Source: Candidatus Methylomirabilota bacterium (GTDB taxonomy: Bacteria > Methylomirabilota > Methylomirabilia > Methylomirabilales > JACPAU01). From it: 42,075 nucleotides of DNA. The notes below the pieces were generated by a model. That model saw only the letters and a program-made list of their open reading frames with translations, ran no database searches and was not told the DNA's origin. Below, piece by piece: positions 6,294 to 14,684 of this stretch (positions are counted from its first letter, which is position 1; every line of letters starts with the position of its first letter). The translations under genes and the position numbers were made by a program. Location: positions 1 through 42,075 of the forward strand of contig JAKEHP010000254.1 in the NCBI GenBank assembly GCA_022614955.1, given 5' to 3'.

Positions 6294-8258
6294 CTATTTC
6301 ACGGGAGACCCCGGCGGCACCTCCTGGTCCGGCTGCAGCAGGACCACGCGGCCGTCGGGGGCTTCGGCGGCCAGGACCATCCCCTGGGAGGTAACGCCCA
6401 TGAGGGTGGCCGGCTTCAGGTTGGCGACGAGGATGACCTGCCGCCCGACCAGCGCCTCCGGGGCGTACTCCTGGAGGATTCCCGCCACCACCGTCCGCTC
6501 CTCCCCTCCGACATCTACACGCAGGCTGATCAGTTTCTTGGAGCGGGGCACGGCCTCCGCCGCCACGACGGTCGCCACACGTAGATCCAGGCGGCCGAAC
6601 TCCTCGGCACTGAGCAACGGCGGCTCGGCGGGGCGGTCCGAAGGTGTCCCGCGCTGGCGGCTGGTCTCCCCACCGGCCCGGCCCTGGGCGGCTGCCACCT
6701 TGGCCCGGACGCCAGCCGTCTCGACCCGGGGGAAGAGCGCCTCCCCCTTCTGCACGCGACCGGTGGAGACCGGCGCCCCCCACCTTCCCTCGGTCGGGAG
6801 CCGAGCCTCCTGGATCGGGAGCGTGATCCCCAGTTGCCGCCAGATGGCGGCGCCGGTCTCGGGCATGGCCGGGGAGAGGAGCAGGGCCGCCTGTCGGATC
6901 GCCTCCCAGAGATGGTAGAGGACCCGCTCCAGGTCCGCCGGCCGGGCCTTCACCAGATCCCAGGGCTTTACGCTGTCAATGTACCGGTTCGCGAGACTGA
7001 CGATCTCCCAGATGGCCTCCAGGGCCCGGTGCCAGGCGAAGGTCTCCACCGCGCTCCGGGCGGCGGCCTTCGCCGCCTCCACCGTCCGCGGGAGCTCCGA
7101 GTCCAGCCCCGCTGTGGGCGGGGAGAGCTTGGGGATGCGGCCTTGCAGGTACCGCTCCAGCATGGTGCAGGTCCGGCTGACCAGATTCCCCAGGTCGTTG
7201 GCCAGGTCGGCGTTCAGGCGCGCGACCAGCGCCTCCTCGCTGAACGTCGCGTCCAGGCCAAAGACCATCTCCCGCAGCAGGAAGTACCGAAACGCGTCGT
7301 AGCCGTACTGATCCACCAGGTCCAGGGGCCGGACCACCGTCCCGCGGCTCTTGGACATCTTGCCGGTCTCTACGGTCCAGTAGCCGTGGACATTCAGGTG
7401 GCGGTAGACCGGGATGCCGGCGGCCCAGAGCATGGTGGGCCAGTAGATGCCGTGGGGCTTCAAGATGTCCTTGCCGATGAGGTGCTGGGCGATCGGCTCC
7501 TGCTCGGTTCCCCAGAACTTGGCATAGAGGTCGCCGTCCGGGTAGCCCAGGGCGCTCGCGTAGTTGATGAGGGCGTCGAACCAGACATAGGTGACGTACC
7601 GGTCGTCGAAGGGGAGCGGGATCCCCCACTGCAGGCGGGCCTTGGGGCGGGAGATGCAGAGGTCCTCAAGGGGATCCTTCAAGAAGGCCAGGACCTCGTT
7701 CCGGTAGCGCTCCGGCCGGATGAAGTCCGGGTGGGCCGCCAGGTGCCGCAGGAGCCGCTCCTGGTACTTGCTCATCCGGAAGAAGTAGTTCTGCTCCTTG
7801 ATGTAGGTGGGTACGGTCAGATGGTCGGGACACTTCCCGTCCACCAGCTCCCGCTCCGTGTAGAACCGCTCGCACCCGAAGCAGTACTGGCCGCCGTACT
7901 CGCCGAAGTAGATGTCCCCGGTCTCGTGGATCTTCTGGAGGATGCGCTGGACCACCTTCCGGTGGAGGGGGGCCGTGGTCCGGATGAACTGGTCGTGGGT
8001 GATTGTCAGCCGGCGCCAGGTCTCCTGGAAGACGCCACTGATCCGGTCGGTGTAGGCCTGCGGACTCTCGCCGGCCGCCGCGGCCGCCTGGGCAACCTTG
8101 TCGCCGTGCTCGTCGGTCCCTGTGAGGAAGTAAACCGCGTCCCCGAAGAGGCGACGGAAGCGGGCCGTGGCGTCGGCCAGGATGGTGGTGTAGGCGTGCC
8201 CCAGGTGGGGGGTGGCATTGACGTAATAGATGGGTGTGGTGATGTAGAAGCGGGTCAT
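6294..8258 (-). CDS. metG: Methionine--tRNA ligase with C-terminal tRNA-binding OB domain
   Basis: FYITTPIYYVNATPHLGH (HIGH), KMSKS, C-terminal DLRVA...SQGMVL; true start ATG 8258 (the track ORF over-extends). Confidence 0.97.
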   Translation of the reverse strand: MTRFYITTPIYYVNATPHLGHAYTTILADATARFRRLFGDAVYFLTGTDEHGDKVAQAAAAAGESPQAYTDRISGVFQETWRRLTITHDQFIRTTAPLHRKVVQRILQKIHETGDIYFGEYGGQYCFGCERFYTERELVDGKCPDHLTVPTYIKEQNYFFRMSKYQERLLRHLAAHPDFIRPERYRNEVLAFLKDPLEDLCISRPKARLQWGIPLPFDDRYVTYVWFDALINYASALGYPDGDLYAKFWGTEQEPIAQHLIGKDILKPHGIYWPTMLWAAGIPVYRHLNVHGYWTVETGKMSKSRGTVVRPLDLVDQYGYDAFRYFLLREMVFGLDATFSEEALVARLNADLANDLGNLVSRTCTMLERYLQGRIPKLSPPTAGLDSELPRTVEAAKAAARSAVETFAWHRALEAIWEIVSLANRYIDSVKPWDLVKARPADLERVLYHLWEAIRQAALLLSPAMPETGAAIWRQLGITLPIQEARLPTEGRWGAPVSTGRVQKGEALFPRVETAGVRAKVAAAQGRAGGETSRQRGTPSDRPAEPPLLSAEEFGRLDLRVATVVAAEAVPRSKKLISLRVDVGGEERTVVAGILQEYAPEALVGRQVILVANLKPATLMGVTSQGMVLAAEAPDGRVVLLQPDQEVPPGSPVK

Positions 8259-8320
8259 CCCCGTCCCCTGCCCGGAAAAAAATCCGGGCGAACGGCTGCC
8301 CCGCCCGCCCGGCCCCACCG

Positions 8321-8352
8321 CCCCGGCGCCGCTACACGGCGCGGGACTTCCC
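8321..8352 (-). promoter_or_regulatory. Putative bacterial SECIS element
   Basis: Minus strand UGA-GGGAAG-UCCC-GCGCCG-UGUAG-CGGCGC-C-GGGG: perfect 6-bp upper stem, bulged C, lower stem, G in second loop position, loop starting after 16 nt downstream of UGA. Confidence 0.65.
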
Positions 8353-9294
8353 TCAGCCCCCGCCCGACCCGCAGCCACCCCCCCCGGACCCGCACCCGCC
8401 GCCCGACCCGCACCCACCCCCCTTGGACCCGCAGCCCCCACCGGAGCCGCAGCTACCGGAGATGGGGGGGATCGCGGGCTGGTCGGGGTAGTCCGCCTTC
8501 CGGACCGCCACCTCGTTGGCCCGGTACCGGACGAAGCTCCCATCCTCGAGCTGGACCATCAGGCTCTCCTCGAGAACATGGTGCTGCTTCACGAGACCCG
8601 CCCCCTGGTGGGTCATCACGTGTCCCCCGACCTTGGGCAGGCCTCTCCGGAGGTCCTGGTACATCGTGTACTCGTAGGAGAGGCAGCATTTCAGGCGGCC
8701 GCAGGCCCCGGAGATCTTCGAGGAGTTGAGGGAGAGGTTCTGCTCCTTGGCCATCTTGATGCTGATCGGCTGGAACTCCTTCAGCCAGGACTTGCAGCAG
8801 AGGGTCCGGCCGCAGGTGCCGATCGCCCCCGTGACGCTGGCCTCGTCCCGGGCGCCGATCTGGCGCATCTCGATCCGCATCCGGAGGCGGTGGGCCAGGT
8901 CCCGGACCAGGTTCCGGAAGTCCACCCGCCCCTCGGCGTTGAACCGAACCAGGCAGCGGGACTGGTCGCCGGAGAAGCGCACGTCCACCAGGTTCATCGG
9001 GAGCTGGTGCTGCTGAATCGCCTCCTCCACCGCGACCCGCGCCTCCTTCTGTCGGGCCTTGAGGTGCTCCGCCCGCTCCAGGTCGGCGGGGGTCGCGGGC
9101 CGCCGGATCTCCCGAAGCGGCTTCGTCAACTTGTGGACGGGGTAGTAGGGGACCTTCGCGGTGACCTTCCCGACCAGGATCCCGCGATCGCTCTCCACCA
9201 CTACCGGCATGCCCAGGGAAATCGGGAGCGACCCGGCGTAGTAAAACTGCTCACGCTCCTGGTCGCCGAAGCTCACCTTCACGACGGGTGCCAT
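8332..9294 (-). CDS. PSP1/YaaT(RicT)-family Fe-S protein with Cys/Gly/Ser tail; candidate selenoprotein (TGA 8353-8355 read as Sec; otherwise ends at 8353)
   Basis: EGRVDFRNLVRDLA..RIEMRQIGARDEA..GTCGRTLCC..KISGACGRLKCCLSYE PSP1 motifs; SD GGAGGTG before ATG 9294; holB-PSP1-metG order. Confidence 0.9.
8353..8455 (-). repeat. Imperfect 18-21 bp tandem repeat encoding (C-G-S-G-G-G)n
   Basis: TGCGGGTC(C/G)GG(C/G)GGNGGN units; protein SCGSGGGCGSKGGGCGSGGGCGSGGGGCGSGGG. Confidence 0.9.
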
Positions 9295-10300
9295 TCCTGT
9301 CACCTCCAGACGCGGGAGCGAGAAGATCCCGCAACCGGAACAGAAGCGCCTCACAGGTGAGGCGCGGGTTGGCGTTGGTCTCCAGGGCCTCGCGGGCAGC
9401 CGCCACGACGGCCACCGCCTCGGCCAGTGCCTCCACCGGGAACCCCCCGGCCGCCGCCGCCAGGGCGTCGGCCCGGTCCCGGTTCACCACGAGCCCGGGG
9501 TGCCCCAGGACCGCGGTCACCAGCAGGTCTCGGCACCAAGTGAGGAGCAGGTCGAACGCCTCGCCCAGGCCCTCCCGGTCCCGCGCGATCTCCTCGGCGA
9601 GTTCGACGCAGGCGGCCGGGCCCCGCTCGAGGGCTGGGAAGAGCCGACTGAGCAGGGCATCCCGGGTCTCGAGCACCGCCTCGCCCGCCAGCGCCAGCGC
9701 ACCCCCCACGCTCCCCCGCGCCAGGGCTGCCACGGCGTGAGCCCGGTCGGCGGGGACGCCCGCCGCTGCCAGGTGCCGCGCGATGAGAGCCTCCGGCACC
9801 GGACCGAAAGCCAGGCGCTGGCAGCGGGACACGACCGTGGGGAGCAGCGCACCCGCCCGCTGGGCCAGGAGGATGAACGTGGTGGCCCCCGCTGGCTCCT
9901 CCAGCGTCTTCAGGAGGGCGTTCTGGGCCTGCTCCGTCAGCGCCTCGGCCGGGTCCAGCAGGGCGAAGCGGCGGCTTCCCTCGTAGGGGCGGCGGCCCAC
10001 CTCCTCCCGCAGGGCCCGCACCTGCTCGATCCGTACCGTCGCCTCTTCCGGGGTCAGGAGGAGCACGTCCGGATGGACCCCGGCAGCGACCTTCCGGCAG
10101 GCCACGCAGGCGCCGCAGGCGTCCCCGTCCGGGAGGCGGTGCAGACAATTCACCGCCTGGGCGAGCGCGAACGCGACCCGGCGCTTCCCAACTCCCCCGG
10201 GTCCGACGAACAGGTACGCGTGCGCCAGGCGATCCGCCCGGAGAGCCTGCCGCAGGAGGGCGACGGCTCGGTCCTGTCCGATGATTCCACCGAAACCCAT
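9251..10300 (-). CDS. holB: DNA polymerase III subunit delta'
   Basis: IIGQ, HAYLFVGPGGVGK, CxxxxxxxxxCxxCxxC Zn module, HPD, AQNALLKTLEEP, SRCQ. Confidence 0.95.
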   Translation of the reverse strand: MGFGGIIGQDRAVALLRQALRADRLAHAYLFVGPGGVGKRRVAFALAQAVNCLHRLPDGDACGACVACRKVAAGVHPDVLLLTPEEATVRIEQVRALREEVGRRPYEGSRRFALLDPAEALTEQAQNALLKTLEEPAGATTFILLAQRAGALLPTVVSRCQRLAFGPVPEALIARHLAAAGVPADRAHAVAALARGSVGGALALAGEAVLETRDALLSRLFPALERGPAACVELAEEIARDREGLGEAFDLLLTWCRDLLVTAVLGHPGLVVNRDRADALAAAAGGFPVEALAEAVAVVAAAREALETNANPRLTCEALLFRLRDLLAPASGGDRNGTRREGELRRPGA

Positions 10301-10671
10301 GGATGCTCCGGGTGCTCGCCGGCCCCCTGTGGCCGGGAATCCTAGCACAACAGGGAAGGCGCGACCAACAGGGTTTTGCGCGGTCCGCCTAACGTGCCGG
10401 CTCCCCTTTCGTTGAGCGGAGGCAGGCAGCGGGCCGTCCTGAAATCCTCCGTCTGCTGACCCAAAGATGCCGAGATTGCCCCTATAGGATCAGGGTTTCC
10501 CTCTCTCCTACCAGCTCAAAATGGGTCGGATTCGCCCGAGCCGAGGCGCCTTGAGACCCCTTGGAAGGTCATAGAAGCCAATGAAATCAGCAAAGATTCG
10601 ATGGTTTTCACTATCCGGAATACCTGAAGGGAAGCGCAGACCGCAATCCTGCCGGGAGGGCCTTGAGCCGA

Positions 10672-13278: not shown

Positions 13279-14684
<1,406 letters not shown>

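Follow-up and report, generated by a model that had tools for sequence, protein, structure and literature searches.

The gene analyzed here encodes a RicT/PSP1 (YaaT) protein and lies in a stretch of 42,075 nucleotides (nt) from a Candidatus Methylomirabilota bacterium (contig JAKEHP010000254.1 of assembly GCA_022614955.1), which was analyzed at its full length and is called the window below. On the minus strand of the window, the ricT open reading frame (ORF) starts with an ATG at 9294-9292, preceded by GGAGG, and runs through 313 codons (8356..9294) to a TGA that is probably a selenocysteine (Sec) codon. The protein was assigned by its matches to PF04468 (PSP1, 100.4 bits against a cut-off of 27) and NF041131 (RicT_YaaT_fam, 266.6 bits against a cut-off of 70). 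Its translation contains an intact iron-sulfur (Fe-S) motif of six cysteines, CX4CCX30CX4CC (C-GRTL-CC, 30 residues, C-GRLK-CC), and a cysteine- and glycine-rich tail with five further cysteines.

The tail reads SGS-C-GSGGG-C-GSKGGG-C-GSGGG-C-GSGGGG-C-GSGGG up to the UGA. The first of its five cysteines stands in the context GS-C-G, the other four in GGG-C-G. Read from the window DNA, the end of the frame is ...SGSCGSGGGCGSKGGGCGSGGGCGSGGGGCGSGGG-[TGA 8355-8353]-GKSRAV-[TAG 8334-8332]. The UGA (8353..8355), proposed as the Sec codon for residue 314, is in the cysteine register of the GGG-C-G repeat and is followed by six sense codons, GGG AAG TCC CGC GCC GTG (8335..8352, translated as GKSRAV), and then by a UAG (8332..8334) that would be the true stop. 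The DNA around the TGA is GGC-TGA-GGG and that of the preceding repeat unit is GGC-TGC-GGG, and because of this shared context the UGA can be said to stand for the cysteine of a sixth repeat unit. An earlier inspection of the DNA letters, referred to here as the original prediction, had named the gene as PSP1/RicT and had described the contexts of the five cysteines, the TGA in cysteine register, the six codons and the TAG. The family models and the window sequence agree with this description in every detail.

Downstream of the UGA, a hairpin resembling a bacterial selenocysteine insertion sequence (SECIS) occupies 8320..8347 on the minus strand. It has 12 base pairs (bp) and one bulged C (8325). 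The lower stem pairs 8347-8343 with 8324-8320, and the upper part (8342-8326, 17 nt) consists of a 7-bp stem, GCGCCGU/GCGGCGC, and a GUA triloop (8335-8333) closed by a U.G pair. The upper stem starts 10 nt past the UGA and the triloop is reached at 17 nt, and the UAG falls within the loop and the first base of the 3' side of the stem. The original prediction had drawn the element as UCCC-GCGCCG-UGUAG-CGGCGC-C-GGGG; it is present, and is better drawn with seven pairs and the GUA triloop. The 28-nt hairpin folds at -22.1 kcal/mol (z = -2.46), a value reached by 3 of 200 shuffled sequences, and the upper stem-loop at -11.5 kcal/mol. An alternative stem that would place the UGA in a loop was discarded, as it is not kept in relatives. 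The hairpin is also not a repeated element, since a genome search that tolerated 5 mismatches gave the 33-nt element only once. A search of the whole window against Rfam at gathering thresholds gave no SECIS, T-box or riboswitch match to the hairpin, and at E values up to 10 the region 8230-8480 gave only GRIK4, Glutamine-II and MEG8, all of them weak chance matches.

A second structure is found 8 nt beyond the SECIS-like hairpin, upstream of metG. It is an intrinsic terminator (8276..8312, minus strand) with a 12-bp G+C stem (8312-8284) followed by seven T residues (8282-8276), and it is kept in five loci of the genus. Terminator-like sites numbered 2 against 0.2 expected. The SECIS-like hairpin has a G-rich sequence and no T run 3' of its stem. 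It was ruled out as a terminator, because the run of seven T residues belongs to the second hairpin at 8312-8284. The original prediction had asked whether the hairpin might act only as a terminator, and the separate, canonical terminator at 8312-8276 answers this question.

The window is contig C256 of a 2.8-Mb metagenome-assembled genome (MAG) of 624 contigs, with an estimated completeness of 95.5% and contamination of 8.3%. Its nearest protein matches carry names from the Methylomirabilales (NC10). The genome encodes a complete set of the Sec components searched for. Matches to tRNA-Sec (76.8 bits), selB (376 bits), selD (390 bits) and selA (580.5 bits) all exceeded the curated cut-offs, and selB, selC and selD, which the original prediction had listed as genes to be confirmed, are thus all present. 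The selA gene (selenocysteine synthase, TIGR00474) lies within the window itself, as had been noted, at 13302..14648 on the minus strand, and because it shares the contig with ricT it ties ricT to a Sec-using organism despite the contamination estimate. The selD gene carries an in-frame UGA of its own, in HGAG-U-ACK. Of the five other genomes of the genus, three have a selB above cut-off and a fourth has a copy cut by the contig end.

In order to compare the hairpin with those of the genome's own selenoprotein genes, the genome was scanned for in-frame TGA codons with coding signal on both sides. The scan gave 136 places, of which 19 were chosen by redox-type motifs (2 of them doubtful); with SelD, they form a set of 20 candidates. 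Among the motifs and families represented are WUPHC, CUINC, a thioredoxin-like UxxC, CxxU in AhpD/CMD-like and HMA-like proteins, UGSC, proteins of the rhodanese, MoeB, OsmC and YedE types, and a methyltransferase. Matches to family models extend over a single in-frame TGA in UGSC, DUF3179 (twice), Rdx/SelW-like, SelD and a radical S-adenosylmethionine (SAM) protein with a CUAEP/CCAEP tail. Six selenoprotein genes are thus supported by family models, and about a dozen more at the level of motifs. According to a 2026 review, the current record, 63 predicted selenoprotein genes, is held by a Methylomirabilota MAG (PMC13188914), and the prior for unrecognized selenoproteins here is therefore unusually high.

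The bacterial SECIS consensus given in the same source comprises a loop of 3-9 nt, a stem of 4-16 bp, a G among the first two loop nucleotides (mostly in the pattern N1-G[G|U]N-N2, where N1 pairs with N2), a distance of 16-37 nt from the UGA and an energy of at most -7.5 kcal/mol (PMC13188914). The RicT hairpin agrees with this consensus on all four counts, with its U-GUA-G loop, 7-bp stem, distance of 16-17 nt and energy of -11.5 kcal/mol. A stricter type was defined as a hairpin with a G[GU]N triloop and six or more base pairs in the stem, located 14-26 nt past the UGA and folding at -7.5 kcal/mol or below. Such hairpins followed 11 of the 20 in-frame-TGA candidates and 5 of 812 ordinary terminal TGAs (0.6%), a contrast that is somewhat inflated, as the triloop criterion was set after the data had been seen, although the pattern itself is a published one. 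The triloops of the 11 candidates are GUC, GGC, GGA, GUG, GGU and GGG, and four of them stand at 17 nt, as in RicT. The comparison with the genome's own selenogenes that the original prediction had recommended therefore places the RicT hairpin with their dominant SECIS type. Among the controls, G-first loops of 3-5 nt were found behind 13 of 812 TGAs at -10 kcal/mol or below and behind 9 of 812 at -11.5 kcal/mol or below.

A blind scan covered the 364 ORFs that end in TGA and meet another in-frame stop no more than 12 codons later, and the triloop hairpin was present in 4 of them. The four were RicT, the CUAEP-tail radical SAM gene on contig C433, a known C-terminal selenoprotein that serves as a positive control, and two frames without the look of coding sequence.

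Several of the TGA codons encountered in these scans are of interest in their own right. The CUAEP/CCAEP-tail radical SAM (seleno)protein (G000:C433:2508-2510, L232) matches NF040546 with 651 bits, ends in ...WYC-U-AEPTEEQVAPF and has a 9-bp hairpin with a GGU triloop 20 nt past the UGA. A peptidase M20 gene (G000:C378:4409-4411, minus strand, L233) has an in-frame TGA in MHA-U-GHD, with a PF01546 match of 160 bits across the site and an 8-bp hairpin, loop GGGGU, 24 nt downstream. This gene may be another unlisted selenoprotein candidate, as the 119-family table of the review contains no M20 peptidase (PMC13188914). A BNR/Asp-box repeat protein (G000:C129:2788-2790, plus strand, L234) with Sortilin-Vps10 and Ycf48-like Pfam matches has its TGA in ...SADCF-U-GWKPV, followed by a SECIS-like hairpin that can be drawn with 7 bp and a GGUCU loop at 18 nt or with 8 bp and a GUC triloop at 19 nt; it does not appear in Table 1 of the review (PMC13188914). 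Finally, one TGA of the control set (G000:C33, minus strand, offset 5123) is followed 18 nt on by a 9-bp hairpin with a GUC triloop, and long open frames flank it. The site may mark a junction between genes or another selenoprotein.

Conservation around the ricT UGA was analyzed in six sequences of the genus, namely the genome itself, four other genomes and a metagenome contig (L053), which is 90% identical and has the same TGA arrangement. The gene was found in four of the five other genus genomes; the fifth is 76% complete. All six sequences keep the TGA column, the peptide GKSRA[V/A], the TAG, the frame and the hairpin, and the UAG is invariant (6/6). A conserved short peptide after the UGA, which the original prediction had proposed to look for, was thus found throughout. 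The stretch from the UGA through the upper stem is 28 nt long, and only 2 of its positions are variable. For third codon positions the count is 134 of 313 (43%), and 25 of 45 in the tail, and most sites directly 3' of the hairpin vary among the six sequences. One of the two changes, GGG to GGA in the first post-UGA codon, is synonymous. The other, U to C at the closing pair, turns U.G into C-G and the codon GTG into GCG (Val to Ala).

Three one-sided changes in the stem preserve pairing, including lower-stem changes from G-C to G.U and from U.G to U-A. Of two-sided compensation, the stem covariation suggested as a check, there was no case. The 10-nt spacer between the UGA and the upper stem has one variable site in ten, and this change is synonymous (p of about 0.01-0.03, a binomial estimate from the observed rates). 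Because the other post-UGA codons overlap the hairpin, the spacer is the only part that speaks for translation in its own right.

In contigs from three further studies (X3, X5 and X8; 3-9% divergent), no difference is listed in 8318-8358, the list leaving out 29 differences with less support. The differences listed for them are at 8359, 8368, 8374, 8383 and 8386 and within 8297-8317, and the three that were mapped (8359, 8368 and 8374) are synonymous third-position changes. Contigs of the RNA run X15 have no cover over 8255-8401 and are uninformative for this region.

The arrangement did not appear outside the genus. In other families of the Methylomirabilales, ricT and metG are 10-70 nt apart or abutting, without such a hairpin and with different tails. 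A search of 251 genomes of the phylum gave matches through the TGA to residues 319-320 only in this genus; in 11 Rokubacteriales loci the match also contained a TGA, which on inspection proved to be a plain stop in every case. Judged by these comparisons, tail, spacer, hairpin and terminator appear to have arisen together with the TGA in one lineage. Among the metagenome and genome loci collected, L053 was the only close relative and the other 159 were distant PSP1 genes. A stop in the PSP1 frame was present in 158 loci. Three or more tail cysteines occurred in 11 of these, and none but L053 had a TGA in cysteine register. A homologue search with the full read-through protein gave a best match of 52% identity, the genus's own proteins not being among the matches listed, so that no close cysteine form came up, and a search with the tail only gave no matches. 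The sequence search of the PDB produced no RicT structure and a single, spurious match. Many distant RicT/PSP1 proteins (P0063-P0119) have long Cys/Gly tails that end in a motif of the type ...GGCGSCG[VI]KKK; to our knowledge, no function has been described for these tails.

The selenium machinery, the likeness of the hairpin to a SECIS and the conservation within the genus all support what the original prediction had proposed, a RicT with a C-terminal Sec. On this basis, we estimate the probability that UGA 8355-8353 is a genuine Sec codon at about 70%. A number of results weigh against it. The 121-nt whole-spacer fold is no better than shuffled sequences (z = -1.08), the spacing of the hairpin is at the lower edge of the published range, and none of the 20 candidates has a GUA loop. 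In this genome of 70% G+C, the loose published criteria are passed by 130 of the 812 ordinary terminal TGAs, compared with 13 of the 20 candidates. No stop codon is used more often in this genome than TGA (817 of 1562 confident ORFs). The genus proteins are close (90-96% identity), and the comparison is limited to one genus. Within it, the absence of two-sided compensation (95% of cells paired, 3 of 60 unpaired, in the lower stem) also counts against Sec insertion, and the conservation of the six codons is inseparable from that of the hairpin. There is also no homologue with a cysteine at exactly the UGA column. In a MAFFT alignment, the last cysteine of the nearest family misses the U by one column, within a tail of low complexity, and the alternation of TGA and TGC for which the original prediction had suggested searching the relatives was not found.

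Alternatively, the TGA may be an ordinary stop. A change from TGC to TGA would then have clipped seven residues from the tail, and the hairpin would have been kept for some purpose at the RNA level that has nothing to do with Sec, for instance stabilizing or processing the 3' end or helping the terminator. This explanation fits the majority use of TGA, with which most RicT orthologues elsewhere likewise end, as well as the overlap of the six conserved codons with the hairpin and the lack of two-sided covariation and of Cys/Sec alternation, and it would make the cysteine register and the glycine and basic residues after the TGA mere leftovers of the old frame. However, it needs a coincidence, in that a hairpin of a type seen behind so few ordinary TGAs (the 5 of 812 above) would stand by chance behind a TGA in exact cysteine register in a Sec-competent genome. 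With a strong terminator 8 nt further on, a second hairpin is unneeded for termination, and the sister families do without one. The conserved 10-nt spacer, whose sole change is synonymous, is also not expected for an ordinary stop, and one would expect SelB to use a hairpin of this kind however it arose. We therefore regard an ordinary stop as unlikely, although it deserves to be taken seriously.

The UGA might also be read through by another route, either by a near-cognate tRNA that inserts Trp or Cys or by stimulation through the hairpin, without SelB or Sec. In some systems, read-through can be promoted by a stable structure just past the stop, and the conservation of the six post-UGA codons would fit such a mechanism. 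Against it, the genome has a dedicated Sec system in wide use, the hairpin fits the SECIS pattern in loop and spacing, and there is no sign of TGA reassignment, as TGA ends about half of the confident ORFs. Read-through of this kind is very improbable in our view. An artefact of sequencing, assembly or binning (for example, a codon that is really TGC, or a contaminant contig from an organism without Sec machinery) might be suspected in a MAG of so many contigs with the contamination estimated above, but it can practically be dismissed, since the TGA recurs in six independent assemblies (five genus genomes and L053) and the contigs of the three further studies show no listed difference at the site, which also settles the question of a sequencing error raised by the original prediction, and since selA is on the same contig.

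If the UGA is indeed a Sec codon, SelB carrying Sec-tRNA(Sec) would bind the hairpin that starts 10 nt past it. Sec would be inserted at the UGA, the six residues GKSRAV would be added, and translation would terminate at the UAG (8334-8332) inside the hairpin. The product would be a RicT of 320 residues, with a Cys/Gly arm containing five cysteines and a near-terminal Sec (...CGSGGG-U-GKSRAV). Some ribosomes would probably stop at the UGA, as at any bacterial Sec site, and release a form of 313 residues. The Sec codon itself would have originated in the ancestor of a single genus-level lineage, when TGC changed to TGA in the final repeat unit.

Both the proposed SECIS and the proposed arm have counterparts in known systems. 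The minimal SECIS of Escherichia coli fdhF has an upper stem-loop of about 17 nt, located about 11 nt past the UGA, and its loop contains G and U. The RicT hairpin is similar in these respects, whereas details of the loop and the bulge differ. Animal thioredoxin reductase ends in a flexible C-terminal GCUG arm with a vicinal Cys-Sec pair and depends on a eukaryotic SECIS in the 3'-untranslated region (3'-UTR). The two arms are alike in being flexible, as proposed for RicT, and tipped with Sec, but the vicinal Cys-Sec pair and the 3'-UTR SECIS are features of the reductase only.

Within the same genome, the CUAEP-tail radical SAM protein (rSAM_CUAEP, NF040546) resembles RicT in its near-C-terminal Sec (11 residues before the stop) and its G[GU]N triloop at 20 nt. 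It belongs to another family, which is already curated as Sec/Cys, and its hairpin lies within the coding sequence, whereas the RicT hairpin straddles the stop. A near-C-terminal Sec is a documented bacterial pattern, exemplified in the review by UXX-star, KCU-star/DUF466 and the Cys-Cys-COOH SaoC, and Sec has been suggested there as a metal ligand in some C-terminal selenoproteins (PMC13188914). UXX-star, KCU-star and SaoC have the Sec in the last few residues, so that the SECIS is at or beyond the stop, as in RicT; they are, however, unrelated to PSP1/RicT and mostly small metal-handling proteins. In the RicT analyzed here, unlike in these proteins, the proposed Sec would stand at the end of a long Cys/Gly repeat, and the protein that bears this repeat is conserved and of a housekeeping type. 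The tails of the distant P0063-P0119 proteins, one of which is named as Ktedonobacteraceae, share with it a last cysteine followed by glycine and a short basic peptide, comparable to U-G-K-S-R-A-V. All of them are cysteine forms, with CxxC in place of Cx5U, and residue-level homology is not establishable in such low-complexity tails.

The best-studied relative is RicT (YaaT) of Bacillus subtilis, a member of the RicAFT complex, which belongs to the same family (NF041131, PF04468) and has the same CX4CCX30CX4CC motif (PMC6751060, PMC10470536). There, the motif provides the ligands of one [4Fe-4S] cluster and, with C167, takes part in a second, which is completed by cysteines from the C-terminal tails of RicA and RicF (PMC6751060). 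Firmicute RicT is described with the six conserved cysteines and without a Cys/Gly tail (PMC6751060, PMC10470536). A Sec form of it is not known. In the genome analyzed here, RNase Y is present (626 bits), and the RicA/RicF family (Com_YlbF, PF06133) gave no match, which in a MAG of 95.5% completeness does not prove absence. One may guess that the arm offers the Fe-S center of RicT additional ligands or a tip with redox activity. Tipped with Sec, it could contribute in cis the ligands that RicA and RicF give in Bacillus, or could sense redox or metal status; both the insertion of Sec and any such function are inferred here from sequence comparison. A link to selenium, redox or metal status is a speculation. 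In its most far-reaching form, the idea is that of a new selenoprotein family, with a SECIS straddling the stop, whose Sec arm donates ligands to the second [4Fe-4S] cluster in cis or acts on it as a redox or metal switch based on selenium, so that RNA processing by way of RNase Y would respond to selenium or redox status. In its entirety, this idea is a long shot.

As the original prediction had supposed, RicT does not seem to be known as a selenoprotein, neither the catalogue nor the literature searched containing such an entry in the parts available. PSP1/RicT/YaaT is absent from Table 1 of the review, which covers 119 families and subfamilies (PMC13188914); an unvalidated listing in other catalogues is possible. 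It is also not mentioned in the available text of this review, of the deep-Sep paper or of the BSepDB paper, whose supplements may list the gene. The literature searched, to the extent that it was accessible as text, contained no link of PSP1/RicT to selenocysteine; YaaT and selenocysteine occurred together only in a Staphylococcus resistance-evolution paper.

The genes around ricT complete the holB-ricT-metG neighborhood that had been described from the sequence and that the Pfam matches on both sides now support. Upstream is holB (DNA polymerase III delta', 9254..10348, minus strand; PF13177 with 171 bits, and PF09115), the 3' end of which overlaps the start of ricT by about 40 nt in another frame (window 9251-9294). 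Downstream is metG (methionyl-tRNA synthetase, 6297..8258, minus strand; PF09334 with 349 bits, and PF01588). The terminator between ricT and metG lies about 18 nt before the metG start and was found only in this genus. With a terminator here and abutting genes in the sister families, the expression of metG would therefore be organized differently in this lineage.

If RicT is a selenoprotein in this genus, PSP1/RicT would join the roughly 119 catalogued prokaryotic selenoprotein families, and its Sec site would be among the few on a conserved protein of RNA metabolism and Fe-S chemistry, not a thiol oxidoreductase. The gene would offer a natural case of a bacterial SECIS lying across the true stop of a housekeeping-type gene. 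It would also illustrate that standard annotation clips C-terminal Sec tails when few codons follow the UGA, and that homology-based finders are blind to such tails. The origin of the Sec codon would be datable to within one genus, by a change from TGC to TGA in a repeat unit and the derivation of a SECIS from the old 3' end. For the family as a whole, the Sec form would provide a handle on the role of the widespread Cys/Gly tails of non-firmicute RicT proteins.

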